This document shows positions 6,877 to 38,013 of a stretch of 38,824 bases of DNA, one piece after another. This DNA comes from Enterobacteria phage AH67C600_Q5. The number at the start of each line of letters is the position of its first letter. Within the stretch, counting starts at the first letter, position 1. Both the position numbers and the translations under genes were made by a program. Location of the stretch: sequence record MZ833439.1; one strand, 5' to 3'. The notes under the pieces are model-generated. The model had not been told where the DNA came from. It saw nothing but the letters and a program-made list of their open reading frames with translations, and did no database searches.

Positions 6877-6898
6877 AATACGACTCACTATAGGAGAT
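6876..6898 (+). promoter_or_regulatory. T7-RNAP class II promoter phi1.5 (taatacgactcactataggagat)
   Basis: 23-mer promoter core directly upstream of the 29-codon gene 1.5. Confidence 0.8.
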
Positions 6899-6905: not shown

Positions 6906-6995
6906 ATGATGTACTTACTTCCACTACTAATTATCATCGTCGGATGTCTTGCGCTACACTATAGCGATGACGACATGCCCGATGGTCACGCTTAA
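6906..6995 (+). CDS. 1.5: gp1.5-like 29-aa hydrophobic protein
   Basis: MMYLLPLLIIIVGCLALHYSDDDMPDGHA; matches T7 gp1.5 as recalled; under 60 aa so not in the ORF track. Confidence 0.65.
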   Translation: MMYLLPLLIIIVGCLALHYSDDDMPDGHA

Positions 6996-7015
6996 TACGA
7001 CTCACTAAAGGAGAC
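6993..7015 (+). promoter_or_regulatory. T7-RNAP class II promoter phi1.6 (taatacgactcactaaaggagac)
   Basis: 23-mer promoter core overlapping the gene 1.5 stop. Confidence 0.8.
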
Positions 7016-7894: not shown

Positions 7895-7897
<3 letters not shown>

Positions 7898-7917
7898 TAC
7901 GACTCACTATTGGGGAA
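7895..7917 (+). promoter_or_regulatory. T7-RNAP class II promoter phi2.5 (taatacgactcactattggggaa)
   Basis: 23-mer promoter core upstream of the SSB gene. Confidence 0.75.
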
Positions 7918-9969: not shown

Positions 9970-9993
9970 TTAATTGATTGTTCGCAACATTGA

Positions 9994-11712
<1,719 letters not shown>

Positions 11713-11729
11713 AGGATACGTGACGATAT

Positions 11730-11752
11730 TAATACGACTCACTAAAGGAGAT
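11730..11752 (+). promoter_or_regulatory. T7-RNAP class II promoter phi4.3 (taatacgactcactaaaggagat)
   Basis: 23-mer promoter core 7 bp upstream of the HNH ORF at 11759. Confidence 0.8.
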
Positions 11753-11758
11753 AGCCAC

Positions 11759-12671: not shown

Positions 12672-12716
12672 GAGTGGTATACTCAAGGTCGCCCTAGTGG
12701 TGGCCTTCATGAATAC
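12672..12716 (+). promoter_or_regulatory. RNase III processing hairpin (R4.7-like)
   Basis: tatactcaaggtcgccctagtggtggccttcatgaat stem-loop signature. Confidence 0.65.
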
Positions 12717-12739
12717 TATTCAACTCACTATAGGAGATA
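12717..12739 (+). promoter_or_regulatory. T7-RNAP class II promoter phi4.7 (attcaactcactataggagatat)
   Basis: Promoter-like core with a deviant -17..-12 region; the last T7-type promoter before phiOR at 37991. Confidence 0.7.
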
Positions 12740-17562: not shown

Positions 17563-17600
17563 TAAACTCAAGGTCCAGGGGCCTTTATGATTATTACTTT
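17563..17600 (+). promoter_or_regulatory. RNase III processing hairpin (R6.5-like); no promoter present
   Basis: aaactcaaggtccaggggcctttatgattattac stem-loop signature; no T7 promoter core in the loop or nearby. Confidence 0.65.
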
Positions 17601-17629
17601 AAGATTTAACTCTAAGAGGAATCTTTATT

Positions 17630-17884
17630 ATGCTAACACCTATTAACCATTTACTTAAGAACCCTAACGATGTTCCAGACGTGCCTCGTGCGACTGCTGA
17701 GTATCTACAGGTTCGATTCAACTATGCGTACCTCGAAGCGTCTGGTCATATAGGACTTATGCGTGCTAACGGTTGTAGTGAGGCCCACATCTTGGGTTTC
17801 ATTCAGGGCCTACAGTATGCCTCTAACGTCATTGACGAGATTGAGTTGCGCAAGGAACAACTAAGAGAAGATGGGGAGGATTGA
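17630..17884 (+). CDS. 6.5: gp6.5 protein
   Basis: 84-aa [43 protein letters not shown]... Confidence 0.85.
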
Positions 17885-17888
17885 CACT

Positions 17889-18155
17889 ATGTGTTTCTCA
17901 CCGAAAATTAAAACTCCGAAGATGGATACCAATCAGGTTCGAGCCGTTGAACCAGCGCCACTGACCCAAGAAGTCTCAGGCGTGGAGTTCGGTGGGTCTT
18001 CTGATGAGACGGATACCGAAGGAACCGAAGTGTCTGGACGCAAAGACCTCAAGGTCGAACGCGACGATTCCGTAGCGAAGTCTAAAGCCGCTGGTACTGG
18101 CTCTGCTCGTATGAAATCTTCAATCCGTAAGTCTGCATTCGGAGGTAAGAAGTAA
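17889..18155 (+). CDS. 6.7: gp6.7 virion protein
   Basis: 88 aa from ATG 17889 (MCFSPKIKTPKMDTNQVRAVEPAPLTQEV...). Confidence 0.85.
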   Translation: MCFSPKIKTPKMDTNQVRAVEPAPLTQEVSGVEFGGSSDETDTEGTEVSGRKDLKVERDDSVAKSKAAGTGSARMKSSIRKSAFGGKK

Positions 18156-18556
18156 TGTCTGAGTTCACACGTGTGGATGCAAAAAGTCGCTTCCGTGCAA
18201 TCCAGTGGACCGTAGAGCACCTTGGGTTGCCTAAGGGATTCGAAGGACACTTTATTGGCTATAGTCTCTACGTTGACGAAGTTATGGACATGTCTGGTTG
18301 TCACGAAGAGTACATTCTGGACTCTACCGGAAAACATGTAGCGTACTTCGCGTGGTGCGTAAGCTGTGACATTCACCATAAAGGTGACATTCTGGATATA
18401 ACGTCCGTTGTCATTAATCCTGAGGCAGACTCTAGGGGCTTACAGCGATTCTTAGCGAAACGCTTTAAGTGCCTTGCAGAACTCCACGATTGCGATTGGG
18501 TGTCCCGCTGCAAACACGAAGGCGAGACAATGCGTGTATACTTTAAGGAGGTATAA
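18155..18556 (+). CDS. 7: gp7 virion/host-range protein
   Basis: 133-aa ORF MSEFTRVDAKSRFRAIQWTVEHLGLPKGFEGHF... Confidence 0.85.
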   Translation: MSEFTRVDAKSRFRAIQWTVEHLGLPKGFEGHFIGYSLYVDEVMDMSGCHEEYILDSTGKHVAYFAWCVSCDIHHKGDILDITSVVINPEADSRGLQRFLAKRFKCLAELHDCDWVSRCKHEGETMRVYFKEV

Positions 18557-18559
18557 GTT

Positions 18560-18826
18560 ATGGGTAAGAAAATTAAGAAGGCCGTTAAGAAAGTCGTTAA
18601 GGAAGTGGCTCGTCCGATTAAACAGGTTGCTGGTGGCATTGCCGGTCTGGCTGGCGGGCAAGTATTGGAAGTTCCACAGGCTGCTGCACAGATTGTTGAC
18701 GCGCCTGAGAAAGAGGTTTCCACTGAGGACGAAGCACAGACCGAAAGCGGACGTAAGAAAGCTCGCGCTGGTGGTAAGAAGTCATTAAGTGTGGCTCGTA
18801 GCTCAGGTGGGGGTATAAATATATGA
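18560..18826 (+). CDS. 7.3: gp7.3 tail-associated protein
   Basis: 88-aa Lys/Ala-rich ORF MGKKIKKAVKKVVKEVARPIKQVAGGIAGLAGG... Confidence 0.85.
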   Translation: MGKKIKKAVKKVVKEVARPIKQVAGGIAGLAGGQVLEVPQAAAQIVDAPEKEVSTEDEAQTESGRKKARAGGKKSLSVARSSGGGINI

Positions 18827-19218
18827 CAGATTGTATCGAGTGGACTGGCTACCTCACAAAAGATGGGTACGGCGAAACTCGACTGAATGGTGTCAAGTTT
18901 AGGGTTCATCGTCTAGAATGGGTGAAACAAAGAGGCCCAATACCTGAAGGTCTAGTTGTTCGCCATAAGTGCGATAACCCTAAATGTTACAATATCGAAC
19001 ACCTTGAGCTAGGAACAACTCAGGATAACACTAGAGATAGGGTCTTGAGGAATAGAAGCGCAAAGGGAGTACGTAATGGTAATTCCAAATTAACACCCGA
19101 TGTCGTTCTGGCAATACGTGCAAGTAGTAAGACCCACAAGCTGATAGCCGAAGAGTTCGGTGTATCCAAATCAGTTGTGACACAGATACGAGCACGTAAG
19201 ACATGGAGGCATATCTAA
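18823..19218 (+). CDS. 7.7: HNH homing endonuclease (T7 gene 7.7 position)
   Basis: 131-aa ORF with HKCDNPKCYNIEHL motif and C-terminal HTH-like region. Confidence 0.85.
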   Translation: MTDCIEWTGYLTKDGYGETRLNGVKFRVHRLEWVKQRGPIPEGLVVRHKCDNPKCYNIEHLELGTTQDNTRDRVLRNRSAKGVRNGNSKLTPDVVLAIRASSKTHKLIAEEFGVSKSVVTQIRARKTWRHI

Positions 19219-20834
19219 TGGCTGAGAAACGAACAGGACTTGCGGAGGAGGGCGCAAAGTCTGTCTATGAGCGTTTAAAGAATGACCGTGCTCCCTACGA
19301 GACACGCGCTCAGAATTGCGCTCAGTATACAATCCCTTCATTGTTCCCTAAGGACTCCGATAACGCCTCAACGGACTATGTAACTCCGTGGCAAGCCGTA
19401 GGCGCTCGTGGTCTAAACAATCTAGCCTCCAAGTTGATGTTAGCGTTATTCCCTATGCAGACGTGGATGCGTCTCACTATATCGGAGTTCGAGGCTAAAC
19501 AGTTACTTGATGACCCTGACGCTCTCGCTAAGGTCGATGAGGGTCTCTCGATGGTAGAGCGTATCATCATGAACTACATTGAGTCTAACAGCTACCGAGT
19601 GACTCTCTTTGAGGCTCTAAAGCAGTTAGTCGTTGCTGGTAACGTACTGCTGTACCTACCGGAACCAGAAGGGTCGAACTACAATCCCATGAAGCTGTAC
19701 CGCTTGTCTTCTTATGTGGTCCAACGAGACGCATTCGGCAACGTTCTGCAAATGGTGACTCGCGACCAGATAGCTTTCGGGGCACTCCCTGAGGATGTCC
19801 GTAAGGCTGTAGAAGGTCAAGGTGGTGAGAAGAAACCTGATGAGACCATTGATGTGTACACTCACATTTATATGGACGAGGAATCAGGAGAGTATCTCCG
19901 CTACGAAGAGGTTGAAGGTATGGAGGTCCAAGGTTCAGATGGGTCGTACCCTAAAGAGGCTTGTCCATACATCCCGATTCGAATGGTTCGACTAGATGGT
20001 GAATCCTATGGTCGTTCGTACATTGAGGAATACTTAGGTGACTTACGGTCCCTTGAGAATCTCCAAGAGGCTATCGTTAAGATGTCCATGATTAGCTCTA
20101 AGGTTATCGGCTTAGTGAACCCTGCTGGTATTACCCAGCCACGCCGACTGACTAAAGCTCAGACTGGTGACTTCGTTACAGGTCGCCCAGAAGACATCTC
20201 GTTCCTCCAACTGGAGAAGCAAGCAGACTTTACTGTGGCTAAGGCCGTCAGTGACGCTATCGAGGCTCGCCTTTCGTTTGCCTTTATGTTGAACTCTGCT
20301 GTTCAGCGCACTGGTGAACGTGTGACCGCCGAAGAGATTCGGTATGTCGCTTCTGAACTTGAAGATACTTTAGGTGGTGTCTACTCAATCCTTTCTCAAG
20401 AATTACAATTGCCTCTGGTACGAGTGCTCTTGAAGCAACTACAAGCCACGCAACAGATTCCTGAGTTACCTAAGGAAGCAGTAGAGCCAACTATTAGTAC
20501 AGGTCTGGAAGCAATCGGTCGTGGTCAAGACCTTGATAAGCTGGAACGCTGTGTCTCTGCATGGGCTGCTCTGGCCCCTATGCGTGATGACCCAGACATT
20601 AACCTTGCGATGATTAAGTTACGCATTGCTAACGCTATCGGTATTGACACTTCTGGCATCCTTCTTACCGAAGAGCAGAAGCAACAGAAGATGGCGCAAC
20701 AGTCTGTGCAAATGGGTATGGATAATGGTGCTGCTGCGCTTGGTCAAGGTATGGCTGCTCAGGCTACAGCTTCACCTGAGGCTATGGCTGCTGCCGCTGA
20801 TTCCGTTGGTTTACAGCAGGGCATTCATCTTTGA
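19218..20834 (+). CDS. 8: Head-tail connector / portal protein (gene 8)
   Basis: MAEKRTGLAEEGAKSVYERLKNDRAPYETRAQNCAQYTIP..., near-identical to T7 gp8; ends ...QQGIHL*, 2 aa longer than T7 as recalled. Confidence 0.95.
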   Translation: MAEKRTGLAEEGAKSVYERLKNDRAPYETRAQNCAQYTIPSLFPKDSDNASTDYVTPWQAVGARGLNNLASKLMLALFPMQTWMRLTISEFEAKQLLDDPDALAKVDEGLSMVERIIMNYIESNSYRVTLFEALKQLVVAGNVLLYLPEPEGSNYNPMKLYRLSSYVVQRDAFGNVLQMVTRDQIAFGALPEDVRKAVEGQGGEKKPDETIDVYTHIYMDEESGEYLRYEEVEGMEVQGSDGSYPKEACPYIPIRMVRLDGESYGRSYIEEYLGDLRSLENLQEAIVKMSMISSKVIGLVNPAGITQPRRLTKAQTGDFVTGRPEDISFLQLEKQADFTVAKAVSDAIEARLSFAFMLNSAVQRTGERVTAEEIRYVASELEDTLGGVYSILSQELQLPLVRVLLKQLQATQQIPELPKEAVEPTISTGLEAIGRGQDLDKLERCVSAWAALAPMRDDPDINLAMIKLRIANAIGIDTSGILLTEEQKQQKMAQQSVQMGMDNGAAALGQGMAAQATASPEAMAAAADSVGLQQGIHL

Positions 20835-20901
20835 AATGAGCGATGACAAGAGGTTGGAGTCCTCGGTCTTCCTGTAGTTCAACTTTAAGGAGACAATAAT
20901 A

Positions 20902-21816
20902 ATGGCTGAATCTAATGCAGACGTATATGCATCTTTTGGTGTGAACTCCGCTGTGATGTCTGGTGGTTCCGTTGAGGAACATGAGCAGAACATGCTGGCT
21001 CTTGATGTTGCTGCCCGTGATGGCGATGATGCAATCGAGTTAGCGTCCGACGAAGTGGAAACAGAACGCGACCTGTATGACAACTCTGACCCGTTCGGTC
21101 AAGAGGATGATGAGGGACGCATTCAGGTTCGTATTGGTGATGGCTCTGAGCCGACCGATGTGGATACTGGAGAAGAAGTCGCTGAGGGCACAGAGGAGTT
21201 TACCCCGCTGGGCGAGACTCCAGAAGAACTGGTAGCTGCCTCTGAGCAACTTGGTGAGCACGAAGAGGGCTTCCAAGAGATGATTAACATTGCTGCCGAG
21301 CGCGGTATGAGTGCTGAGACCATTGAGGCAATCCAGCGTGAGTACGAGGAGAACGAAGAGTTATCCGATGCGTCATACGCTAAGCTGGCTGAAATTGGCT
21401 ACACTAAGGCTTTCATCGACTCGTACATTCGCGGTCAAGAAGCTCTGGTGGAGCAGTACGTCAACAGTATCGTTGAGTACGCTGGTGGTCGTGAGCGTTT
21501 TGATGCGCTGTACAGTCACCTTGAGACTCACAACCCTGAGGCTGCACAATCGCTGGACAACGCGTTGACGAATCGCGACTTAGCGACCGTTAAGGCCATC
21601 ATCAACTTGGCTGGTGAGTCTCGTGCTAAGGCGTTCGGTCGTAAGCCAACTCGTAGTGTAACCAGTCGAGCTATTCCGGCTAAACCTCAAGCTACTAAGC
21701 GTGAAGGGTTTGCTGACCGTAGCGAGATGATTAAGGCTATGAGTGACCCTCGGTATCGCACTGATGCAAACTATCGCCGTCAAGTCGAACAGAAAGTTAT
21801 CGACTCGAACTTCTGA
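20902..21816 (+). CDS. 9: Capsid assembly scaffold protein (gene 9)
   Basis: 304-aa acidic ORF MAESNADVYASFGVNSAVMSGGSVEEHEQNMLALD..., T7 gp9 homolog. Confidence 0.95.
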   Translation: MAESNADVYASFGVNSAVMSGGSVEEHEQNMLALDVAARDGDDAIELASDEVETERDLYDNSDPFGQEDDEGRIQVRIGDGSEPTDVDTGEEVAEGTEEFTPLGETPEELVAASEQLGEHEEGFQEMINIAAERGMSAETIEAIQREYEENEELSDASYAKLAEIGYTKAFIDSYIRGQEALVEQYVNSIVEYAGGRERFDALYSHLETHNPEAAQSLDNALTNRDLATVKAIINLAGESRAKAFGRKPTRSVTSRAIPAKPQATKREGFADRSEMIKAMSDPRYRTDANYRRQVEQKVIDSNF

Positions 21817-21817
21817 T

Positions 21818-22168
21818 AGACTCTCAACTTGCCGGATTCATCCAATGAGAACATTACTGGCCTTGGGTCCGCATCGGTCATTGAGACTACTCAGGCTAAG
21901 ACTCGCTGGAACCTCTCGCGCTAATACCGATGGTCAGAAACATGGCTTCCCAGAAGGCGTTGGCGGTAACAACAAGGTGGCTAAAATCAACGTTATCGGC
22001 CTGTTCATGCACCGCTCTGCGGTTGGTACTGTGAAACTGCGTGACTTGGCTCTGGAGCGCGCTCGCCGTGCTAACTTCCAAGCTGACCAGATTATCGCTA
22101 AGTACGCAATGGGCCACGGTGGTCTGCGCCCAGAAGCTGCTGGTGCAGTGGTTTTCAAAGCGGGGTAA
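21818..22168 (+). pseudogene. 10: Remnant of the major capsid protein gene (gene 10): about 115 of about 345 codons, in two different frames
   Basis: In the frame from 21820, NENITGLGSASVIETTQAK resembles T7 gp10 NENIEGLGTATVIETTQNK and then hits a stop at 21919-21921; in the +1 frame, [87 protein letters not shown] matches the gp10 C-terminus. No N-terminal half, no start codon, no RBS, no promoter. Confidence 0.85.
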
Positions 22169-22284
22169 TGCATGAAGTGACCTCAACGGTCGCTGCTAGT
22201 ACCGAAGAGGTAAGCATTACTGCCGAAGAGAGTCTAACTCCAGCACAAAAAGCTGCACGTACACGCTTTAATGGGAGGAACTAT

Positions 22285-22875
22285 ATGCGCTCTTACGATA
22301 TGAACGTTGAGACTGCCGCTGAGTTATCCGCTGTTAACGACATTCTGGCATCTATCGGTGAACCTCCGGTATCGACGCTGGAAGGTGACGCTAACGCAGA
22401 TGTGGCGAACGCTCGGCGTATTCTCAACAAGATTAACCGACAGATTCAGTCTCGTGGCTGGACATTCAACATTGAGGAAGGCATAACGCTATTACCTGAT
22501 GTTTACTCCAACCTGATTGTATACAGTGACGACTATTTGTCCCTAATGGCTACTTCTGGTCAATCCATCTACGTCAACCGAGGTGGCTATGTGTATGACC
22601 GAACGAGTCAATCTGACCGCTTTGAATCTGGCATTACCGTTAACATTATTCGTCTTCGAGACTACGATGAGATGCCTGAGTGCTTCCGCTACTGGATTGT
22701 CACTAAGGCTTCCCGTCAGTTCAACAACCGATTCTTTGGGGCACCAGAAGTAGAAGGTGCACTCCAAGAAGAGGAAGATGAGGCTCGACGTCTCTGCATG
22801 GAGTACGAAGTGGACTACGGTGGGTACAATATGCTGGATGGCGATGCGTTCACTTCTGGTCTACTGACTCGCTAA
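22285..22875 (+). CDS. 11: Tail tubular protein A (gene 11)
   Basis: 196 aa from ATG 22285 ([35 protein letters not shown]...), near-identical to T7 gp11; upstream part of track ORF 22168..22875 is the gene 10B-extension remnant. Confidence 0.95.
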
Positions 22876-22895
22876 TAATCAATAAGGAGGCTCTA

Positions 22896-25280
22896 ATGGC
22901 ACTCATTAGCCAATCAATCAAGAACTTGAAGGGTGGTATCAGCCAACAGCCTGACATCCTTCGTTATCCAGACCAAGGGTCACGCCAAGTTAACGGTTGG
23001 TCTTCGGAGACCGAGGGCCTCCAAAAGCGTCCACCTATGGTTTTCCTTAAGACCCTAGGAGGAAGTGGTGACTTAGGACAAGCGCCTTACATCCACCTGA
23101 TTAACCGTGATGAACGAGAACAGTATTACGCTGTGTTCACTGGTAGTGGAATCAGAGTGTTCGACCTTGCTGGTAACGAGAAGCAAGTTAGGTATCCTAA
23201 CGGTTCCGACTACATCAATACCGCTAATCCGCGTAACGACCTGCGAATGGTTACTGTAGCAGACTACACGTTCATCGTTAATCGCAACGTTGCTGTACAG
23301 AAGAACGAAACGTCTGTCAACTTACCGAATTACAACCCTAAGCAAGATGGATTGATTAACGTTCGTGGTGGTCAGTATGGTAGGGAACTAATTGTGCACA
23401 TTAACGGTAAAGACGTTGCGAAGTATAAAATCCCAGATGGTAGCAAACCTGAACACGTAAACAATACGGATGCCCAATGGTTAGCCGAAGAGTTAGCCAA
23501 GCAGATGAGCACTAACTTGTCTGGTTGGGCTGTAAATGTGGGGCAAGGGTTCATACACGTTACCGCACCTAGCGATCAACAGATTGACTCCTTCACGACT
23601 AAAGACGGATACGCAGACCAGTTGATTAACCCTGTGACCCACTACGTTCAGTCGTTCTCTAAGTTACCACCTAATGCTCCTGACGGCTACATGGTGAAAA
23701 TAGTAGGGGACGCCTCTAAGTCTGCCGACCAGTATTATGTTCGGTATGACGCTGAGCGGAAAGTTTGGGTTGAGACTTTAGGCTGGAACACTGAGAACCA
23801 AGTCCTATGGGAAACAATGCCACACGCTCTTGTGCGAGCCGCTGACGGTAATTTCGACTTCAAGTGGCTTGAGTGGTCTCCTAAGTCTTGTGGTGACGTT
23901 GACACCAACCCTTGGCCTTCTTTTGTTGGTTCAAGTATTAACGATGTGTTCTTCTTCCGTAACCGCTTAGGGTTCCTTAGTGGGGAGAACATCATATTGA
24001 GTCGTACAGCCAAATACTTCAACTTCTACCCTGCGTCCATTGCGAACCTTAGTGATGACGACCCTATAGACGTAGCTGTGAGTACCAACCGAATAGCAAT
24101 CCTTAAGTACGCCGTTCCGTTCTCAGAAGAGTTACTCATATGGTCAGATGAAGCCCAGTTCGTCCTGACTGCATCTGGTACCCTTACATCGAAGTCAGTT
24201 GAGTTGAACCTAACGACTCAGTTTGATGTGCAGGACCAAGCGAGACCTTACGGGATTGGGCGTAACGTCTACTTTGCTAGTCCGAGGTCCAGCTACACGT
24301 CCATCCACAGATATTACGCCGTGCAGGATGTAAGTTCCGTTAAGAACGCTGAGGACATTACATCACATGTTCCTAACTACATCCCTAATGGTGTGTTCAG
24401 TATTTGTGGTAGTGGTACGGAAAACTTCTGTTCGGTACTATCTCATGGGGACCCCAGCAAAATCTTCATGTACAAATTCCTGTACCTGAATGAAGAGCTA
24501 CGACAACAGTCGTGGTCTCACTGGGACTTTGGGGAAAACGTGCAGGTTCTAGCGTGCCAAAGTATCAGCTCAGATATGTATGTTATTCTTCGCAATGAGT
24601 TCAATACGTTCCTAGCTAAAATCTCTTTCACTAAGAACGCCATTGACTTACGAGGTGAACCTTACCGTGCCTTTATGGACATGAAGATTCGCTACACGAT
24701 TCCGAGTGGAACATACAACGATGACACGTTCACTACCTCTATCCATATTCCAACCATTTATGGTGCAAACTTCGGGAGGGACACAATCACCGTATTGGAG
24801 CCTGATGGTAAGATAACCGTATGTGAGCAACCAACTGGTGGGTGGAATAGTGACCCTTGGCTGAGACTCAGCGGTAACTTAGAGGGACGTGAAGTGTTCA
24901 TTGGGTTCAACATACACTTCGTCTATGAGTTCTCTAAGTTCCTCATCAAGCAAACTGCCGACGATGGGTCTACCTCCACGGAAGACATTGGTCGCTTACA
25001 GCTACGCCGAGCGTGGGTTAACTACGAGGAATCTGGTACGTTTGATATTTACGTTGAGAACCAATCATCCAACTGGAAGTACACAATGGCTGGTGCTCGC
25101 TTAGGCTCTAACAGTCTGAGGGCTGGGCGATTGAACTTAGGGACCGGACAATACCGATTCCCTGTGGTGGGCAACGCCAAATTCAATACCGTATACATCG
25201 TGTCAGATGCGACTACCCCTCTTAACATCATTGGGTGTGGCTGGGAAGGTAACTACTTACGGAGAAGTTCCGGTATTTAA
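22896..25280 (+). CDS. 12: Tail tubular protein B (gene 12)
   Basis: 794-aa ORF MALISQSIKNLKGGISQQPDILRYPDQGSRQVNGW..., T7 gp12 homolog. Confidence 0.97.
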   Translation: MALISQSIKNLKGGISQQPDILRYPDQGSRQVNGWSSETEGLQKRPPMVFLKTLGGSGDLGQAPYIHLINRDEREQYYAVFTGSGIRVFDLAGNEKQVRYPNGSDYINTANPRNDLRMVTVADYTFIVNRNVAVQKNETSVNLPNYNPKQDGLINVRGGQYGRELIVHINGKDVAKYKIPDGSKPEHVNNTDAQWLAEELAKQMSTNLSGWAVNVGQGFIHVTAPSDQQIDSFTTKDGYADQLINPVTHYVQSFSKLPPNAPDGYMVKIVGDASKSADQYYVRYDAERKVWVETLGWNTENQVLWETMPHALVRAADGNFDFKWLEWSPKSCGDVDTNPWPSFVGSSINDVFFFRNRLGFLSGENIILSRTAKYFNFYPASIANLSDDDPIDVAVSTNRIAILKYAVPFSEELLIWSDEAQFVLTASGTLTSKSVELNLTTQFDVQDQARPYGIGRNVYFASPRSSYTSIHRYYAVQDVSSVKNAEDITSHVPNYIPNGVFSICGSGTENFCSVLSHGDPSKIFMYKFLYLNEELRQQSWSHWDFGENVQVLACQSISSDMYVILRNEFNTFLAKISFTKNAIDLRGEPYRAFMDMKIRYTIPSGTYNDDTFTTSIHIPTIYGANFGRDTITVLEPDGKITVCEQPTGGWNSDPWLRLSGNLEGREVFIGFNIHFVYEFSKFLIKQTADDGSTSTEDIGRLQLRRAWVNYEESGTFDIYVENQSSNWKYTMAGARLGSNSLRAGRLNLGTGQYRFPVVGNAKFNTVYIVSDATTPLNIIGCGWEGNYLRRSSGI

Positions 25281-25329
25281 TTAAATATTCTCCCTGTGGT
25301 GGCCAATACGACTACGGGAGGGTTTTCTT

Positions 25330-25755
25330 ATGATGACTATAAGACCTACTAAAAGTACAGACTTAGAGGTATTCACTCCGGCTCACCATGACATTCTTGA
25401 AGCTAAGGCTGCTGGTATTGAGCCGAGTTTCCCTGATGCTTCCGAGTGTGTCACGTTGAGCCTCTATGGGTTCCCTCTAGCTATCGGTGGTAACTGCGGG
25501 GGCCAGTGCTGGTTCGTTACGAGCGACCAAGTGTGGCGACTTAGTGGAAAAGCTAAGCGAGAGTTCCGTAAGTTAATCATGGAGTATCGTGATAAGATGC
25601 TTGAGAAGTATGATACTCTTTGGAATTACGTATGGGTAGGTAATACGTCCCACATTCGTTTCCTCAAGACTATCGGTGCGGTATTCCATGAAGAGTACAC
25701 ACGCGATGGTCAGTTTCAGTTATTTACAATAAATAGGAGGACTCAGTATGGCTAG
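25330..25755 (+). CDS. 13: gp13 internal virion protein
   Basis: 141-aa ORF MMTIRPTKSTDLEVFTPAHHDILEAKAAGIEPSF... Confidence 0.9.
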   Translation: MMTIRPTKSTDLEVFTPAHHDILEAKAAGIEPSFPDASECVTLSLYGFPLAIGGNCGGQCWFVTSDQVWRLSGKAKREFRKLIMEYRDKMLEKYDTLWNYVWVGNTSHIRFLKTIGAVFHEEYTRDGQFQLFTINRRTQYG

Positions 25756-26062
25756 AGACAAAGCTAAGAAAGCGGCTTATGACAAGGCTCGCTACAATCC
25801 CCGCGCTAACAAGGACAGACACCTTAGGCGCTCGTATGGGATAACCATAGAAGATTATGATAAAATGTTTGAGTCACAAGGCGGAGCATGTGCCATTTGC
25901 GGTCGCCCTGAAACAGCCAAAGGTCGCTCATTAGCAGTAGATCATTCTCATGATACTGGCGAGGTACGTGGACTTCTGTGTCACGCCTGTAATACCTCCA
26001 TTGGTAAGTTTAGGGAGAACCGTGAGTGGCTTCTTAAAGCTATCAAATATATAGGAGGTTAA
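25748..26062 (+). CDS. HNH endonuclease of the Endonuclease VII-like type, inserted between genes 13 and 14
   Basis: 104-aa ORF with CAICGRPE...AVDHSHDTGEVRGLLCHACNTSIG, the Cys-pair/DH/HxxN pattern of Endo VII-family HNH nucleases; overlaps the gene 13 stop. Confidence 0.8.
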   Translation: MARDKAKKAAYDKARYNPRANKDRHLRRSYGITIEDYDKMFESQGGACAICGRPETAKGRSLAVDHSHDTGEVRGLLCHACNTSIGKFRENREWLLKAIKYIGG

Positions 26063-26064
26063 TT

Positions 26065-26655
26065 ATGTGTTGGGCAGCCGCAATTCCTATTGCTATATCT
26101 GGCGCTCAGGCTATCGGTAGTCAGAACGCTCAAGCTAAAATGATAGCCTCTCAGACCGCTGCTGGTCGCCGTCAAGCATTTGAACTTATGAAGCAGACGA
26201 ACATCCAGAATGCTGACCTATCGCTGCAAGCTCGAAGTAAACTTGAGGAAGCGTCCGCTGAGTTGACCTCTCAGAACATGCAGAAGGTTCAGGCTATGGG
26301 GTCAATCCGAGCTGCTATCGGAGAGAGTATGCTTGAAGGTGCCTCAATGGACCGCATTAAGCGAGTCACGGAAGGTCAGTTCATTCGGGAAGCCAATATG
26401 GTAACTGAGAACTATCGCCGAGATTATCAAGCAATCTTCGCACAGCAACTTGGTGGTACTCAAAGTGCTGCAAGCCAGATTGACGAAATCTATAAGAGCG
26501 AACAGAAACAGAAGAGTAAGCTACAGATGGTTCTGGACCCACTGGCTATCATGGGGTCTTCCGCTGCGAGTGCTTACGCATCCGGTGCGTTCGACTCTAA
26601 GTCCACAACTAAGGCACCTATTGTTGCCGCTAAAGGAACCAAGACGGGGAGGTAA
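26065..26655 (+). CDS. 14: Internal virion protein B (gene 14)
   Basis: 196-aa ORF MCWAAAIPIAISGAQAIGSQNAQAKMIASQTAAGRRQAFE... Confidence 0.93.
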   Translation: MCWAAAIPIAISGAQAIGSQNAQAKMIASQTAAGRRQAFELMKQTNIQNADLSLQARSKLEEASAELTSQNMQKVQAMGSIRAAIGESMLEGASMDRIKRVTEGQFIREANMVTENYRRDYQAIFAQQLGGTQSAASQIDEIYKSEQKQKSKLQMVLDPLAIMGSSAASAYASGAFDSKSTTKAPIVAAKGTKTGR

Positions 26656-26661
26656 TGAGCT

Positions 26662-28905
26662 ATGAGTAAAATTGAATCTGCCCTTCAAGCGGCACAACCG
26701 GGACTCTCTCGGTTACGTGGTGGCGCTGGCGGTATGGGCTATCGTGCGGCTACCACTCAGGCTGAACAGCCAAAGTCAAGCCTATTGGACACCATTGGTC
26801 GGTTCGCTAAGGCTGGTGCCGATATGTATACCGCTAGGGAACAACGAGCGCGTGACCTAGCTGATGAACGCTCTAACGAGATTATCCGTAAGTTGACCCC
26901 TGAGCAGCGCCGAGAGGCTCTCAACAACGGGACCCTTCTGTATCAGGATGACCCATACGCTATGGAAGCACTTCGCGTCAAGACTGGTCGTAACGCAGCG
27001 TACCTTGTGGACGATGACGTTATGCAGAAGATTAAAGAGGGTGTCTTCCGTACTCGTGAAGAGATGGAAGAGTACCGTCATAGTCGTCTTCAAGATGGCG
27101 CTAAGGCATACGCTGAGCAGTTCGGTATCGACCCTGATGACGTTGACTATCAGCGTGGTTTCAACGGGGACATTACTGAGCGTAACATCTCACTGTATGG
27201 GGCACATGATAGCTTCTTGAGTCAGCAAGCTCAGAAGGGTGCCATCATGAACAGCCGAGTGGAACTCAACGGCGTCCTTCAAGACCCTGATATGCTTCGA
27301 CGCCCAGACTCTGCGGACTTCTTTGAGAAGTACATCGACAACGGTCTGGTTACTGGGGCAATCCCTTCTGACGCTCAAGCAACACAGCTTATAAGCCAAG
27401 CGTTCAGTGACGCTTCTAGCCGTGCTGGTGGTGCGGACTTCCTGATGCGAGTCGGTGACAAGAAGGTAACTCTTAACGGAGCCACTACGACTTACCGAGA
27501 GTTGATGGGTGAAGAACAGTGGAATGCTCTCATGGTCACAGCACAACGTTCTCAGTTTGAGAATGACGCTAAGATGAACGAGCAGTATCGCTTGAAGATT
27601 AACTCTGCGCTTAACCAAGAGGACCCTCGTACTGCGTGGGAGATGCTTCAAGGTATCAAGGCTGAACTCGATAAGGTTCAACCTGATGAGCAGATGACAC
27701 CGCAACGTGAGTGGCTAATCTCGGCACAGGAACAAGTCCAGAATCAGATGAACGCATGGACGAAGGCTCAAGCCAAAGCTCTGGATGACTCAATGAAGTC
27801 TATGAACAAACTTGACGTAATCGACAAGCAATTCCAGAAGCGAATCAACGGTGAGTGGGTCTCAACGGACTTTAAGGATATGCCAGTCAATGAGAACACT
27901 GGTGAGTTCAAGCATAGTGATATGGTTAACTACGCCAATAAGAAGCTCGCTGAGATTGACAGTATGGACATTCCAGATGGTGCCAAGGATGCTATGAAGT
28001 TGAAGTACCTTAAAGCGGACTCTAAGGACGGCGCATTCCGTACAGCAATCGGAACTATGGTTACTGACGCCGGTCAAGAGTGGTCTGCCGCTGTGATTAA
28101 CGGTAAGTTGCCAGAACGAACCCCAGCTTTGGATGCTCTGCGTAGAATCCGTAATGCCGACCCTCAGTTGATTGCTGCGCTATACCCAGACCAAGCTGAG
28201 CTATTCCTGACGATGGACATGATGGACAAGCAGGGTATTGACCCTCAGGTTATTCTTGACGCTGACCGACTGACTGCCAAACGTTCCAAAGAGCAACGCT
28301 TCGAGGATGATAAAGCATTCGAGTCTGCACTGAATAGCTCTACGGCCCCTGAGATTGCCCGTATGCCAGCGTCACTTCGTGAATCTGCACGTAAGATTTA
28401 TGACTCCGTTAAGTATCGCTCGGGGAACGAAAGCATGGCTATGGAGCAGATGACCAAGTTCCTTAAGGAATCTACCTACACGTTCACTGGTGATGATGTT
28501 GACGGTGATACCGTTGGTGTGATTCCTAGGAATATGATGCAGGTTAACTCTGACCCGAAATCATGGGAGCAAGGTCGGGATATTCTGGAGGAAGCACGTA
28601 AGGGAATCATTGCGAGCAACCCTTGGATAACCAACAAGCAACTGACCATGTATTCTCAAGGTGACTCCATTTACCTTATGGATACCACTGGTCAAGTCCG
28701 CGTCCGTTATGATAAAGAGTTACTCTCGAAGGTCTGGAGTGAGAACCAGAAGAAACTCGAAGAGAAGGCTCGCGAGAAGGCTCTGGCTGATGCGAATAAG
28801 CGAGCACCTATAGTTGCCGCTACGAAAGCTCGCGAAGCTGCTGCTAAACGAGTGCGAGAGAAACGTAAACAGACTCCTAAGTTCATCTACGGGCGCAAGG
28901 AGTAA
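26662..28905 (+). CDS. 15: Internal virion protein C (gene 15)
   Basis: 747-aa ORF, T7 gp15 homolog. Confidence 0.95.
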   Translation: MSKIESALQAAQPGLSRLRGGAGGMGYRAATTQAEQPKSSLLDTIGRFAKAGADMYTAREQRARDLADERSNEIIRKLTPEQRREALNNGTLLYQDDPYAMEALRVKTGRNAAYLVDDDVMQKIKEGVFRTREEMEEYRHSRLQDGAKAYAEQFGIDPDDVDYQRGFNGDITERNISLYGAHDSFLSQQAQKGAIMNSRVELNGVLQDPDMLRRPDSADFFEKYIDNGLVTGAIPSDAQATQLISQAFSDASSRAGGADFLMRVGDKKVTLNGATTTYRELMGEEQWNALMVTAQRSQFENDAKMNEQYRLKINSALNQEDPRTAWEMLQGIKAELDKVQPDEQMTPQREWLISAQEQVQNQMNAWTKAQAKALDDSMKSMNKLDVIDKQFQKRINGEWVSTDFKDMPVNENTGEFKHSDMVNYANKKLAEIDSMDIPDGAKDAMKLKYLKADSKDGAFRTAIGTMVTDAGQEWSAAVINGKLPERTPALDALRRIRNADPQLIAALYPDQAELFLTMDMMDKQGIDPQVILDADRLTAKRSKEQRFEDDKAFESALNSSTAPEIARMPASLRESARKIYDSVKYRSGNESMAMEQMTKFLKESTYTFTGDDVDGDTVGVIPRNMMQVNSDPKSWEQGRDILEEARKGIIASNPWITNKQLTMYSQGDSIYLMDTTGQVRVRYDKELLSKVWSENQKKLEEKAREKALADANKRAPIVAATKAREAAAKRVREKRKQTPKFIYGRKE

Positions 28906-28931
28906 CTAAAGGCTACATAAGGAGGCCCTAA

Positions 28932-31900
28932 ATGGATAAGTACGATAAGAACGTACCAAGTGATTATGATGGTCTGTTCCAAAAGGCGGCTGATGCCAAC
29001 GGGGTCTCTTATGACCTTTTACGTAAAGTCGCTTGGACGGAATCACGCTTTGTACCCACAGCAAAATCTAAGACTGGACCATTAGGTATGATGCAGTTCA
29101 CCAAGGCAACCGCTAAGGCCCTTGGTCTGCGAGTTACCGATGGTCCAGATGATGACCGACTGAACCCTGAGTTAGCTATCAACGCTGCTGCTAAGCACCT
29201 TGCAGGTCTGGTTGGTAAATTCGATGGTGATGAACTCAAAGCTGCTCTTGCATATAACCAAGGCGAGGGACGCTTGGGTAATCCTCAACTTGAGGCGTAC
29301 TCCAAGGGAGACTTCGCGTCCATCTCTGAGGAGGGGCGTAATTACATGCGTAGCCTTCTGGATGTTGCTAAGTCACCTATGGCTGGACAGTTGGAAACTT
29401 TTGGAGGTATCACCCCAAAGGGTAAAGGCATTCCGGCTGAGGTAGGATTGGCTGGAATTGGTCATAAGCAGAAGGTGACACAGGAACTACCTGAGTCCAC
29501 AAGTTTTGACGTTAAGGGTATCGAACAGGAGGCTCCGGCGAAACCATTCGCCAAGGACTTTTGGGAGACCCACGGAGAAACGCTTGACGAATACAACAGT
29601 CGTTCAACCTTCTTCGGATTCAAAAATGCTGCCGAAGCTGAACTCTCCAACTCAGTCGCTGGGATGGCTTTCCGTGCTGGTCGTCTCGATAATGGTTTTG
29701 ACGTGTTTAAAGACACCATTACGCCGACTCGCTGGAACTCTCACATCTGGACTCCAGAAGAGTTAGAGAAGATTAGAACAGAGGTTAAGAACCCTGCGTA
29801 CATCAACGTGGTAACTGGTGGTTCTCCTGAGAATCTTGATGACCTCATTAAGCTGGCTAACGAGAACTTTGAGAATGACTCCCGCGCTGCCGAAGCTGGC
29901 CTAGGTGCAAAACTGAGTGCTGGAGTTATTGGTGCTGGCGTGGACCCACTCAGTTATGTTCCTATGGTCGGTGTGACTGGTAAGGGCTTTAAGTTAGTCA
30001 ATAAGGCTCTTGTAGTCGGTGCAGAGAGTGCTGCGCTGAACGTTGCATCCGAAGGTCTACGTACATCCGTAGCTGGCGGTGACGCTCACTACTCAGAGGC
30101 TGCTTTAAGTGGCTTTTTGTTTGGTGCTGGTATGTCCGCAATCAGTGACGCTGTAGCTGCTGGACTGAAACGTAGTAAGCCAGAAGTTGAGTTCGATAAT
30201 GAGTTCATCGGTCCTATGATGCGAATGGAAGCCCGTGAGACAGCACGTAACGCCAACTCTGCGGACCTCTCTCGGATGAACACTGAGAACATGAAGTTTG
30301 AAGGTGAGCATAATGGTATTCCGTATGCGGACTTACCGACCGAGAAAGGTGCTGTGGTGTTACATGATGGCTCCGTTATAAGCGCAAGCAACCCAACCAA
30401 CCCTAAGACTCTAAAAGAGTTCTCTGAGGTTGACCCTGAGAAGGCTGCGCGAGGAATCAAACTTGCTGGGTTCACCGAGATAGGCTTGAAGACCTTGGGG
30501 TCTGATGATGCTGACATCCGTAGAGTGGCTATCGACTTAGTTCGCTCACCTACTGGTATGCAGTCTGGTGCCTCAGGTAAGTTCGGTGCAACAGCTTCTG
30601 ACATCCACGAGAGACTTCACGGTACTGACCAGCGTACTTACAATGACCTGTACAAAGCAATGTCTGACGCGATGAAAGACCCTGAGTTCTCTACTGGTGG
30701 TGCTAAGATGTCTCGCGAAGAGGCACGATACACTATCTATCGTAGAGCGGCATTGGCTATTGAGCGTCCAGAGTTGCAGAGCGCACTCACTCGGTCTGAG
30801 AGAACCGTTATGGACATCATTAAGCGTCACTTTGACACCAAGCGTGAACTTATGGAGAACCCAGCAATCTTCGGTAATACGAAGGCTGTTAGTATCTTCC
30901 CTGAGAGTCGCCACAAAGGGACTTACGTTCCTCATGTATACGACCGACACGCTAAGGCGGTGATGATTCAACGCTACGGTGCCGAAGGTTTACAGGAAGG
31001 GGTTGCTCGCTCATGGATGAACAGCTACGTCTCCAGACCTGAGGTCAAGGCACGAGTTGATGAGATGCTTAAGGAATTACATGGGGTGAAGGAAGTAACG
31101 CCAGAGATGGTAGAGAAGTACGCTATGGATAAGGCTTACGGTATCTCTCATTCCGACCAGTTCACCAACAGTTCCATAATCGAAGAGAACATTGAGGGCT
31201 TAGTAGGTATCGAGAACAACTCGTTCCTTGAGGCACGTAACTTGTTCGATTCGGACTTATCCATCACTATGCCAGACGGACAGCAATTCTCAGTGAACGA
31301 CCTAAGGGACTTCGATATGTTCCACATCATGCCAGCGTATGACCGCCGCGTCAATGGTGACATCGCCATCATGGGGTCAACTGGTAAAACCACTAAGGAA
31401 CTTAAGGACGAGATTTTGGCTCTCAAAGCTAAAGCTGAGGGAGACGGTAAGAAGACTGGCGAGGTTCATGCTCTTATGGATACCGTTAAGATTCTTACTG
31501 GACGTGCTCGACGCAATCAGGATACTGTGTGGGAAACCTCGATGCGAGCTATCAATGACCTAGGGTTCTTCGCTAAGAACGCCTATATGGGTGCTCAGAA
31601 CCTTACTGAGATTGCTGGGATGTTTGCCACAGGTAACGTGCGTGCTCTCGGTCACGGTATCCCAATTCTGCGAGATACACTCTACAAGTCTAAACCAGTT
31701 TCCGCTAAGGAACTCAAGGAACTCCATGCGTCTCTGTTCGGGAAGGAGGTGGACCAGTTGATTCGACCTAAACGTGCTGACATAGTACAGCGACTAAGGG
31801 AAGCGACTGATACCGGACCTGCTGTGGCGAACATCGTAGGGACCTTGAAGTATTCCACGCAGGAACTGGCTGCTCGCTCTCCGTGGACTAAGGTGCTGAA

Positions 31901-32906
31901 TGGAACCACTAACTACCTTCTGGATGCTGCGCGTCAAGGTATGCTTGGTGACGTTATTAGTGCCACCCTAACAGGTAAGACTACCCGCTGGGAGAAAGAG
32001 GGATTCCTTCGGGGTGCCTCCATAACTCCTGAGCAGATGGCTGGTATCAAGTCTCTAATCAAGGAACACATGGTCCGTGGTGAGGACGGGAAGTTTACCG
32101 TTAAGGACAAGCAAGCGTTCTCTATGGACCCGCGTGCTATGGACTTATGGCGACTGGCTGACAAGGTAGCTGATGAGGCGATGCTGCGTCCGCATAAGGT
32201 GTCCTTACAGGATTCCCATGCGTTCGGAGCATTAGGTAAGATGGTGATGCAGTTTAAGTCTTTCACCATTAAATCCCTTAACTCTAAGTTCATTCGAACC
32301 TTCTACGATGGATACAAGAACAACCGAGCGATTGACGCTGCGCTGACTAGTATCATCTCTATGGGTCTCGCTGGTGGTTACTACGCTATGGCTGCACACG
32401 TCAAAGCGTATGGGATGCCTAAGGAGCAACGTAAAGAATACTTGGAGCGAGCACTGGACCCAACCATGATTGCCCACGCTTCGTTGTCTCGTAGTTCTCA
32501 ATTAGGTGCTCCTTTGGCTATGGCTGACCTAGTTGGTGGTATCTTAGGGGTAGAGTCCTCCAAGATGGTTCGCTCCACGATTCTACCTAAGGACACCATG
32601 AAGGAACGTGACCCAAACAAACCGTACACCTCTAGAGAGGTAATGGGAGCTATGGGTTCGAACCTTCTGGAGCAGATGCCTTCGGCTGGCTTTGTGGCTA
32701 ACGTTGGGGCCTCCCTAATGAACGCTGCTGGTGTGGTTAACTCACCTAACAAAGCAACCGAGCAGGACTTCATGACTGGCTTAATGAACTCTACCAAAGA
32801 GTTAGTGCCTAACGACCCTCTTACTCAACAGCTTGTGGTTAAGATTTATGAGGCCAACGGTGTTAACTTGAAGGAGCGTCGGAATGAAAGAATCTTCTCC
32901 CTGTAG
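28932..32906 (+). CDS. 16: Internal virion protein D with N-terminal lytic transglycosylase domain (gene 16)
   Basis: 1324-aa ORF; N-terminal transglycosylase-like region (TESRFVPTAKSKTGPLGMMQF); T7 gp16 homolog with a 6-aa longer C-terminus (NERIFSL*). Confidence 0.95.
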   Translation: MDKYDKNVPSDYDGLFQKAADANGVSYDLLRKVAWTESRFVPTAKSKTGPLGMMQFTKATAKALGLRVTDGPDDDRLNPELAINAAAKHLAGLVGKFDGDELKAALAYNQGEGRLGNPQLEAYSKGDFASISEEGRNYMRSLLDVAKSPMAGQLETFGGITPKGKGIPAEVGLAGIGHKQKVTQELPESTSFDVKGIEQEAPAKPFAKDFWETHGETLDEYNSRSTFFGFKNAAEAELSNSVAGMAFRAGRLDNGFDVFKDTITPTRWNSHIWTPEELEKIRTEVKNPAYINVVTGGSPENLDDLIKLANENFENDSRAAEAGLGAKLSAGVIGAGVDPLSYVPMVGVTGKGFKLVNKALVVGAESAALNVASEGLRTSVAGGDAHYSEAALSGFLFGAGMSAISDAVAAGLKRSKPEVEFDNEFIGPMMRMEARETARNANSADLSRMNTENMKFEGEHNGIPYADLPTEKGAVVLHDGSVISASNPTNPKTLKEFSEVDPEKAARGIKLAGFTEIGLKTLGSDDADIRRVAIDLVRSPTGMQSGASGKFGATASDIHERLHGTDQRTYNDLYKAMSDAMKDPEFSTGGAKMSREEARYTIYRRAALAIERPELQSALTRSERTVMDIIKRHFDTKRELMENPAIFGNTKAVSIFPESRHKGTYVPHVYDRHAKAVMIQRYGAEGLQEGVARSWMNSYVSRPEVKARVDEMLKELHGVKEVTPEMVEKYAMDKAYGISHSDQFTNSSIIEENIEGLVGIENNSFLEARNLFDSDLSITMPDGQQFSVNDLRDFDMFHIMPAYDRRVNGDIAIMGSTGKTTKELKDEILALKAKAEGDGKKTGEVHALMDTVKILTGRARRNQDTVWETSMRAINDLGFFAKNAYMGAQNLTEIAGMFATGNVRALGHGIPILRDTLYKSKPVSAKELKELHASLFGKEVDQLIRPKRADIVQRLREATDTGPAVANIVGTLKYSTQELAARSPWTKVLNGTTNYLLDAARQGMLGDVISATLTGKTTRWEKEGFLRGASITPEQMAGIKSLIKEHMVRGEDGKFTVKDKQAFSMDPRAMDLWRLADKVADEAMLRPHKVSLQDSHAFGALGKMVMQFKSFTIKSLNSKFIRTFYDGYKNNRAIDAALTSIISMGLAGGYYAMAAHVKAYGMPKEQRKEYLERALDPTMIAHASLSRSSQLGAPLAMADLVGGILGVESSKMVRSTILPKDTMKERDPNKPYTSREVMGAMGSNLLEQMPSAGFVANVGASLMNAAGVVNSPNKATEQDFMTGLMNSTKELVPNDPLTQQLVVKIYEANGVNLKERRNERIFSL

Positions 32907-32934
32907 TATCTTAGATTTACTTTAAGGAGGTCAA

Positions 32935-37990: not shown

Positions 37991-38013
37991 TAATTCGACT
38001 CACTATAGGGAGA
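37991..38013 (+). promoter_or_regulatory. T7-RNAP promoter phiOR-like (taattcgactcactatagggaga)
   Basis: Only remaining 23-mer with the full class III-type tatagggaga 3' half; carries T instead of A at -13. Confidence 0.8.

Follow-up and report, generated by a model that had tools for sequence, protein, structure and literature searches.

The window, by which we mean the whole 38,824-nucleotide stretch of Enterobacteria phage AH67C600_Q5 analyzed here (sequence record MZ833439.1), is the genome of a T7-like phage (Teseptimavirus) with ∼91–93% nucleotide identity to 13a, PGX1, and T7. Its gene order is collinear with that of T7, and it encodes a single-subunit RNA polymerase and T7-type structural genes. 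The products gp1, gp8, gp9, and gp11–gp19 are full length, with 86–99% amino acid identity to T7. Among the T7 proteins tested, 11 besides gp10 were full length at this level of identity (10 of the 11 are late, and all virion and packaging proteins tested are among them), and gp10 was the sole broken protein.

The original prediction held that promoter cores are present at phiOL, at class II positions, and at phiOR, that none occurs between 12740 and 37990, and that the exact class III consensus is missing altogether. Consistent with this, the 23-mer TAATACGACTCACTATAGGGAGA was absent from the window, and a search allowing up to three mismatches returned only positions 138, 5739, 7895, and 37991. 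A looser core search added 6876, 6993, 11098, 11730, and 12716, in agreement with the claimed cores, and yielded between 12740 and 37990 only four two-mismatch matches of the type expected by chance. The promoters retained are as follows (vector match refers to the comparison with cloning vectors described below):

138..160, + strand: phiOL-type promoter; longest vector match 16 nt
5739..5761, + strand: phi1.3 promoter
6876..6898, + strand: phi1.5 promoter; vector match 20 nt, the highest residual score in the window
6993..7015, + strand: phi1.6 promoter; vector match 16
7895..7917, + strand: phi2.5 promoter; vector match 16
11098..11120, + strand: phi4c promoter
11730..11752, + strand: phi4.3 promoter; vector match 17
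12716..12738, + strand: phi4.7 promoter
37991..38013, + strand: phiOR promoter, TAATTCGACTCACTATAGGGAGA

Upstream of genes 6.5, 9, 10, 13, and 17, the class III consensus 23-mer was absent in five of five cases. Alignment to 13a revealed clean losses of 26–31 nt between conserved flanks at phi6.5, phi9, phi13, and phi17. The core of the original description, five late promoters missing between kept flanks, was borne out, although the gap at phi10 is not promoter-sized. The junction flanks are up to 100% identical to relatives (comparison with T7, 13a, and HZP2), and those of phi6.5 match HZP2 at 100% over 151 nt, with a 30-nt promoter insert in HZP2. The further claim that class II promoters are retained holds only in part: phi3.8 is cut between 9977 and 9978, and phi1.1A, R1.1, and phi1.1B are collapsed between 5270 and 5271. 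The junctions and the gene 10 remnants are listed below:

5270..5271, + strand: phi1.1A/R1.1/phi1.1B junction, AAATTAATA joined to TCACTATAGGG (also written AAATTAATA joined to TCACTATAGGGAAG); ∼80 nt lost
9977..9978, + strand: phi3.8 junction, inside a class II promoter; TAATTGA kept, ACTCACTAAAGGGAGACCACAGCGGTTTCCCT (32 nt) lost
17576..17577, + strand: phi6.5 junction; 30 nt lost, CTAAATTAATACGACTCACTATAGGGAGAT in HZP2, 13a, and T7
20824..20825, + strand: phi9 junction; 26 nt lost (TTAATACGACTCACTATAGGGAGACC), gene 8 stop codon removed
21823..21831, + strand: phi10/gene 10 left junction, ambiguous within a few bases; phi10 promoter, s10 leader, and codons 1–146 lost
21826..21903, + strand: gene 10 island, 78 nt; gp10A residues 147–171 kept (tblastn, frame 1)
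21903..21904, + strand: second gene 10 junction; ∼254 nt (codons 172–257) lost, not a multiple of 3
21904..22266, + strand: gene 10 3′ part, retained; gp10A residues 258–343 and the 10B tail, in a frame different from that of the island
22266..22267, + strand: 10B end/Tphi junction; ∼107 nt lost, GCTGCTAACAAAGCCCGAAAGG...GGGGTTTTTTGCT
25303..25304, + strand: phi13 junction; 31 nt lost
32884..32885, + strand: phi17 junction; 26 nt lost, gene 16 stop codon removed

As predicted, gp8 reads through to ...GIHL* and gp16 to ...NERIFSL*, because the stop codons of both genes are the TAA of the deleted phi9 and phi17 promoters. The "half-promoter remnant" reported near 25307 proved to be ordinary conserved sequence: aatacgactacggg lies downstream of the phi13 junction, and CAATACGACTACGGGA is also found in intact 13a.

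The loss around phi10, which starts at ∼T7 22880, amounts to ∼780 nt; besides the promoter and its leader, it takes in gene 10 codons 1–146 and 172–257. The 78-nt island left within it is 73% identical to PGX1 and is the stretch most divergent from T7. Beyond the second junction, the retained sequence restarts at the first T7 mismatch, just ahead of codon 260, and four T7-identical runs of 34–47 nt are left in place; such T7-like sequence right after codon 260 is absent from vectors. A Pfam Gp10A-like match to this 3′ part spans only profile positions 197–279 of 279. Of gene 10, then, only residues 147–171 and 258–343 are encoded, in two different frames, and the remnants have no start codon. 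Because gp10 exists only as two out-of-frame fragments, the sequence as written cannot make capsids. Farther downstream, the loss of Tphi starts at T7 24106, inside gene 10B, and no terminator was found in the 22266..22267 region.

Vectors of the pET type and related vectors are assembled from T7 elements: the phi10 promoter with its leader (starting at T7 22881), gene 10 codons 1–260, and the Tphi terminator (T7 24106–24229). For example, pET3xa-barn36 (NC_025174.1) carries T7 22881–22969 and 24106–24232. We simulated VecScreen (+1/−5) on intact 13a with a proxy library consisting of pET3xa and T7 22881–23746 (gene 10 codons 1–260; vectors with these codons presumably belong to the screening library). 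Seven intervals scored at least 23, corresponding to phi3.8, phi6.5, phi9, phi10-gene 10, Tphi, phi13, and phi17, and the window lacks every one of them. The edges of the losses agreed exactly with the simulation for phi3.8, phi9, and the left side of Tphi, and elsewhere to within 1–2 nt. At phi9, both the observed loss and the simulated match are 13a 20312–20337. The phi3.8 loss equals the simulated match 13a 9361–9392, which aligns to positions 14–45 of the phi10 fragment (score 26), and the cut begins exactly where similarity to that fragment starts. At phi6.5 (observed 13a 17022–17051, simulated 17024–17050), phi13 (observed 25714–25744, predicted 25715–25743), and phi17 (observed 33012–33037, predicted 33013–33035, score 23), the missing spans are 1–2 nt longer per side than the exact proxy-vector match. 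The Tphi insert of pET3xa-barn36 begins at T7 24106, the very base where the Tphi loss starts, and the gene 10 loss extends to codon 257, stopping at the first mismatch ahead of codon 260, where the fusion leader of the vectors ends. Commercial vectors carry gene 10 codons 1–260 as such a leader (PMC2095791). These vector-fragment boundaries (T7 24106 inside gene 10B, ∼T7 22881, and approximately gene 10 codon 257–260) carry no meaning for the phage.

The simulation also revealed a sharp threshold: matches that were removed score at least 23 (phi17, 23), and those that were kept score 20 or less (phi1.5, 20; phiOR, 18). Class III promoters share 23–29 nt with the vector phi10 promoter, and surviving promoters share 16–20 nt; phiOR escaped with an exact match of only 18 nt because of one mismatch to the consensus. 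The lowest class of internal matches in VecScreen is that with a score of 23–24, which fits the gap between removed and kept sequences. Across the whole genome, exact runs of at least 23 nt shared by the window and T7 (n = 435) account for 45.9% of the T7 sequence lying outside the vector-borne intervals, but none of the 990 vector-borne T7 bases falls in such a run; in the intact control 13a, 77% of these bases do. The pattern is thus well beyond what chance would give. Overall, the losses track similarity to the T7 fragments of pET-type vectors, regardless of promoter class, and in this sense the original description of a selective, repeated, and sequence-directed rather than random loss is borne out. 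The interval bounded by CGAC of phi1.1A and CGAC of phi1.1B, with the R1.1 RNase III site between them (T7 5836–5914), was not predicted by the simulation (scores, 22 and 20); PLSDB contained no plasmid with this T7 stretch, and the junction was not found in IMG/VR. Its loss probably belongs to the same artefact.

Pattern, edges, and threshold are joined by a further observation, the recurrence of the cuts in other records. PV596790.1 (Yersinia phage vB_Yep_9; ∼89% identical to the window) and PV596791.1 (vB_Yep_15) are different phages that were submitted in one batch; both show the same excisions, and neither has an annotated major capsid CDS. Among the records inspected, only these two match continuously across the junctions; promoters are kept in the other top-ranked relatives among the ∼170 records matching these regions. 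As in the window, the 23-mer consensus is absent from both, the phi6.5 and Tphi junctions are identical, the right edge of the gene 10 loss is shared, and T7 24106–24216 is missing; the highest residual vector scores are 20 and 18, respectively. Unlike the window, vB_Yep_9 has lost the stretch from phi10 to codon 257 whole (855 nt in one piece) because its gene 10 is without the T7-divergent island, and its cut starts at CGAAATT, that is, at T7 22881, exactly where the phi10 fragment of pET begins. The phi1.1 junction, which differs in vB_Yep_15, was matched in one piece only by vB_Yep_9 among the 12 best-matching records.

Taken together, these results make it very likely that the losses are a computational excision artefact of a vector-similarity screen and not a real feature of the phage. 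A normal T7-like phage (Teseptimavirus) would have been sequenced and its genome assembled, and the assembly would then have been screened against a cloning-vector library (a VecScreen/UniVec-type BLAST search or an equivalent contamination report). Because the vectors are built from T7 parts, the screen would have taken the phage's own sequence for vector and flagged each of the five class III promoters, that portion of phi3.8 with similarity to the phi10 leader, gene 10 up to codon 257 wherever it is T7-like, and Tphi. Each flagged span would have been deleted and its flanks joined; promoters with a vector match of 16–20 nt would have fallen under the reporting threshold and survived, and the 78-nt island would have escaped because no other stretch there diverges as far from T7. 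The program used, who ran it, and the placing of the removal after assembly are inferred. We attribute the incomplete gene 10 to the excision artefact rather than to the phage itself. The missing late promoters would accordingly be an effect of software, by which the main terminator and most of the capsid gene were removed likewise.

The original prediction had favored either engineering or selection acting on the exact consensus, and it made the late genes dependent on read-through from phi4.7 or promoters upstream. A phage truly without class III promoters, whether by natural selection or by engineering, whose late genes are read through from class II promoters, would fit losses as precise and repeated as these, and in the window the RNA polymerase gene is indeed intact and class II promoters lie upstream. 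However, the same process took two thirds of the capsid gene, together with Tphi. With gp10A residues 1–146 and 172–257 absent and remnants that are out of frame and lack a start codon, no capsid protein would be made. Moreover, a class II promoter, phi3.8, is cut midway at the point where phi10 similarity begins, the cut edges are ends of pET fragments, and identical cuts occur in two divergent GenBank phages that were submitted in one batch, while no other relative examined has them. We therefore regard such a phage as scarcely credible, and the gene 10 truncation already effectively refutes it; the "selection" is that of software, or of a submitter acting on a vector-contamination screen, and neither that of nature nor that of a genome engineer. 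We give still less credence to a faithful read-out of a real defective or helper-dependent T7-like genome from which Tphi, most of gene 10, and every consensus late promoter have been lost. If true, such a genome could, for example, be propagated on a host supplying capsid protein from a pET-type plasmid, the losses arising through recombination with the plasmid.

Two technical routes other than a screen of the finished assembly were also weighed. Relatives carry the five class III promoters as exact repeats, the window is circularly permuted as assembled and its ends overlap by 68 nt, and the phi1.1A/phi1.1B loss sits between two direct repeats, all of which would suit an assembler that collapsed or skipped identical 23-nt promoters. 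Yet repeat collapse removes the sequence between repeats or breaks contigs; it does not excise each copy in place with gene order kept. Gene 10 and Tphi are single-copy and were nevertheless removed, the island left within gene 10 is the T7-divergent stretch, the cuts go no further than codon 257, and phiOR (18-nt shared repeat) and phi1.5 (20 nt) are untouched. An assembly artefact is thus very improbable. Clipping of vector-like segments from the reads before assembly, after which the assembler joined the flanks, would account for the same lost intervals and the same threshold, and we consider it unlikely but less so than the other alternatives. End-trimming would leave no gap-spanning reads, and contig breaks or N-gaps would be expected, whereas at six or more sites the observed joins are seamless and share no overlap; clipping would require software able to cut out matches lying inside reads. 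Vector-screen excision from the assembled genome is the reading that we retain.

Compared with T7, 13a, and HZP2, the window shares gene order, RNA polymerase, class II promoters, and phiOR, and its structural genes are full length except for gene 10. It differs in being without phi6.5, phi9, phi10, phi13, phi17, and half of phi3.8, as well as the phi1.1A-R1.1-phi1.1B interval, ∼770 nt of gene 10, and Tphi, none of which is missing from the relatives. The likeness to VecScreen/UniVec-type screening is that the lost intervals are the BLAST matches of an intact relative to a pET-type vector, with edges at vector insert ends or at the first mismatch. Such screens are meant for foreign vector sequence, usually at sequence ends; here, unlike in normal vector screening, the matches are the phage's native sequence, and internal spans were deleted without review. 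The proxy library differs from the presumed screen in failing to reproduce the phi1.1/R1.1 loss and the 1–2-nt over-cuts. Finally, engineered T7 promoter knock-outs (phi9/phi10), which have been used for attenuation studies, resemble the window in that late promoters were removed from the T7 genome. In those knock-outs, however, one or two promoters were removed from T7 itself, gene 10 is intact, and the phage is viable, whereas the window, a ∼92% relative, has lost every vector-like segment and no longer has a working capsid gene.

The reported loss of the late T7-RNAP promoters from the window is confirmed here and does not reflect genuine biology; what is missing corresponds exactly to the pieces of T7 built into cloning and expression vectors. 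As claimed, the exact 23-mer TAATACGACTCACTATAGGGAGA was absent from the window, and allowing up to three mismatches returned matches only at 138, 5739, 7895, and 37991. A looser core search gave four chance-like two-mismatch matches within 12740–37990, in agreement with the claim that this interval is without a promoter core, and located extra promoters at 6876, 6993, 11098, 11730, and 12716. Further, alignment to the intact, annotated relative 13a revealed that phi6.5, phi9, phi13, and phi17 are missing between well-conserved flanks in seamless losses; at phi6.5, the surrounding 151 nt are 100% identical to the relative HZP2, save for the 30-nt promoter insert of the latter. The claimed read-through of gp8 to ...GIHL-stop and of gp16 to ...NERIFSL-stop was seen in translation and arises because the stop codons of both genes are the TAA of the lost promoters. 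What had been taken for a half-promoter remnant after phi13 (aatacgactacggg) is ordinary conserved sequence that is present in intact 13a too. The accompanying claim that class II promoters are retained holds for those matched in the core searches but fails for phi3.8, which is cut mid-promoter, and for phi1.1A–phi1.1B, which are collapsed.

Losses in the window, by junction (sizes at phi6.5, phi9, phi13, and phi17 from alignment to 13a)
5270/5271: collapse of phi1.1A–R1.1–phi1.1B (R1.1, RNase III site); reads AAATTAATA/TCACTATAGGG; T7 5836–5914 missing
9977/9978: cut in phi3.8 (class II); TAATTGA retained, ACTCACTAAAGGGAGACCACAGCGGTTTCCCT gone
17576/17577: phi6.5, 30 nt
20824/20825: phi9, 26 nt
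22266/22267: gene 10B end and Tphi terminator, ∼107 nt
25303/25304: phi13, 31 nt
32884/32885: phi17, 26 nt

At phi10, the promoter is missing as claimed, but the loss is not promoter-sized: ∼780 nt are gone, comprising the promoter, the leader, gene 10 codons 1–146, and codons 172–257. Between the two losses a 78-nt island (residues 147–171) is kept, which is the gene 10 stretch most divergent from T7, and the right-hand loss stops at codon 257, at the first T7 mismatch before codon 260. The two gene 10 remnants are out of frame with each other, a Pfam search with the capsid family matched only profile positions 197–279 of 279, and a phage with the sequence as written could not assemble a capsid. 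Downstream, the Tphi loss starts at T7 24106, at GCTGCTAACAAAGCCC, inside gene 10B; this edge is meaningless for a phage, but the vector insert begins at this very base. On the right, the loss stops after TTTTTTGCT, where the phage departs from T7, and a terminator search at 22266/22267 detected none. The mechanical ORF of gene 11 (22168–22875; 235 aa versus 196 aa in T7; true gp11 start at 22285) is extended upstream because Tphi and the gene 10B end have been removed.

The plasmid NC_025174.1 (pET3xa-barn36), a pET-3xa derivative found in PLSDB, carries T7 22881–22969 (phi10 promoter and leader) and 24106–24232 (Tphi), and codon 260 is the last of the gene 10 fusion leader in commercial vectors. 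pSCREEN-1b(+) is described as carrying the first 260 residues of gene 10 in PMC2095791, the one useful source in the literature searched on pET-3xa coordinates and on the sibling phages described below. We simulated VecScreen by BLAST (+1/−5) of intact 13a against a proxy library of pET3xa plus T7 22881–23746 (gene 10 codons 1–260). Seven 13a intervals scored at least 23, and 7/7 are missing from the window.

Simulated vector matches in 13a
9361–9392: phi3.8, score 26
17024–17050: phi6.5, score 27
20312–20337: phi9, score 26
21347–22216: phi10 and gene 10, score 610
22573–22695: Tphi, score 111
25715–25743: phi13, score 29
33013–33035: phi17, score 23

Simulated and observed edges agree exactly at phi3.8, at phi9, and on the left of Tphi and elsewhere lie within 1–2 nt of each other, the phi6.5, phi13, and phi17 cuts being 1–2 nt wider than the exact proxy-vector match. 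Residual vector matches in the window all score 20 or less; phiOR is spared because one mismatch limits its exact vector match to 18 nt. With 20 as the highest score kept and every removed interval at 23 or more, the dividing line is therefore a vector likeness of at least 23 nt and not class III versus class II. A cut-off of 23 equals the lowest internal-match class reported by VecScreen.

T7-like sequence absent from vectors was spared. T7 and the window have 435 exact runs of at least 23 nt in common; outside the vector-borne intervals these account for 45.9% of T7, and inside them for 0/990 bases, whereas in the intact 13a control coverage inside these intervals is 77%. Four T7-identical runs of 34–47 nt are kept directly 3′ of gene 10 codon 260. 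Because T7-like runs are kept outside the vector-borne intervals, the criterion is likeness to vector-carried T7 parts and not to T7 itself. A screen against the whole T7 genome or pLysS was rejected, as T7-identical runs persist genome-wide outside these intervals, including just after codon 260, and the full-length ORF 9514–9969, at the expected position of the gene 3.5 lysozyme, also contradicts it. A k-mer masker tolerating one mismatch, considered for the 1–2-nt over-cuts, predicts longer over-cuts to the left of phi17 and to the right of gene 10 and was likewise discarded.

Overall, we are highly confident that a vector-library screen after assembly produced these losses: the assembled genome would have been compared with a vector library, the flagged spans deleted, and the flanks of the deleted spans joined. 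Directly shown are which intervals are lost and where they end, the score threshold, the sparing of T7-like sequence absent from vectors, and the recurrence in the sibling phages; which program and library were used is inferred, as is removal from the finished assembly instead of from reads, which is favored because the joins are seamless and without overlap. A genuine phage without class III promoters is excluded in practice, as the capsid gene is destroyed and the cut edges are vector-defined; there is no evidence for the original prediction that late genes run without class III promoters in a T7-like phage. Assembler repeat collapse cannot explain the losses either, given that gene 10 and Tphi, both single-copy, were removed too and that phi3.8 was cut internally.

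The loss of T7 5836–5914 was not predicted by the proxy library, with scores there of 22 and 20. In its place, window 5265–5290 holds a crippled hybrid, AAATTAATA/TCACTATAGGGAAG, without CGAC. The junction is identical in Yersinia phage vB_Yep_9, the only one of the 12 best-matching records to span it in one piece, and takes a variant form in vB_Yep_15; a search of IMG/VR for the junction gave no match, and a PLSDB search for plasmids carrying T7 5780–5990 found none. A HinfI-fragment model, which accounted for the left edge (5836) but missed the right one (5914), was rejected. Early pET vectors carried the R1.1 RNase III site, and a vector-borne R1.1 fragment is suspected to be behind this loss.

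The window is a whole Teseptimavirus (T7-like) genome of 38,824 bases, collinear with T7, 13a, PGX1, and HZP2 at ∼91–93% nucleotide identity. It runs from about T7 position 279 around to about T7 position 340, and because its ends share a 68-nt exact overlap (1–68 = 38757–38824), it represents a circularly permuted assembly that crosses the concatemer junction and has its terminal repeat collapsed. Eleven T7 proteins other than gp10 were tested, of which ten are late, and all proved full length at 86–99% identity. Gene 5 (DNA polymerase) is broken relative to T7 by a 601-nt insertion (15130–15730) with an HNH_3 endonuclease ORF (15215–15610); 13a has a similarly split gene 5 with an annotated HNH endonuclease, and an intron or homing element is the probable identity of the insertion. 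Another four nuclease ORFs, these free-standing (11594–12187, 18823–19218, 25748–26062, and 37496–37939; three HNH_3 and one Endonuclease VII-type, the latter between genes 13 and 14), occupy sites variable among T7-like genomes and are typical homing-endonuclease mosaicism. A clean 88-nt loss at 7589/7590 (13a 7282–7369, an "unknown product" ORF between genes 1.7 and 1.8) looks like ordinary variation unrelated to promoters or vectors.

The promoter loss thus has no biological significance; its importance lies in data quality, with at least three T7-like genomes hit: the window and the consecutive GenBank accessions PV596790.1 (vB_Yep_9) and PV596791.1 (vB_Yep_15), the latter two both labeled "complete genome." Native sequence was removed from all three because it resembles vectors themselves built from T7. 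The three records are left without the major capsid gene, late promoters, and main terminator and with gp8 and gp16 falsely extended at their C termini, and they will be a source of error in promoter surveys, in pangenome and core-gene analyses, and in sequence-model training sets. The value of the finding is as a curation alert: PV596790.1 and PV596791.1 need correction, and the joint absence of the 23-mer consensus, the 5′ end of gene 10, and Tphi from a T7-like genome is an easy signature to screen for. Among the records inspected, only these two cross the junctions without a break, and the inserts are retained in the other top-ranked relatives (best of ∼170 records matching these regions). 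vB_Yep_9 and vB_Yep_15 are different phages, vB_Yep_9 being ∼89% identical to the window; residual vector scores reach at most 20 and 18, respectively, and the phi10 cut of vB_Yep_9 begins at CGAAATT (T7 22881), which is where the pET fragment starts. Like the window, both are without the consensus 23-mer, the 5′ part of gene 10, the late promoters, and Tphi (T7 24106–24216 missing), with the major capsid CDS unannotated; their phi6.5 and Tphi junctions are identical to those of the window, and the right edge of the gene 10 loss is the same.
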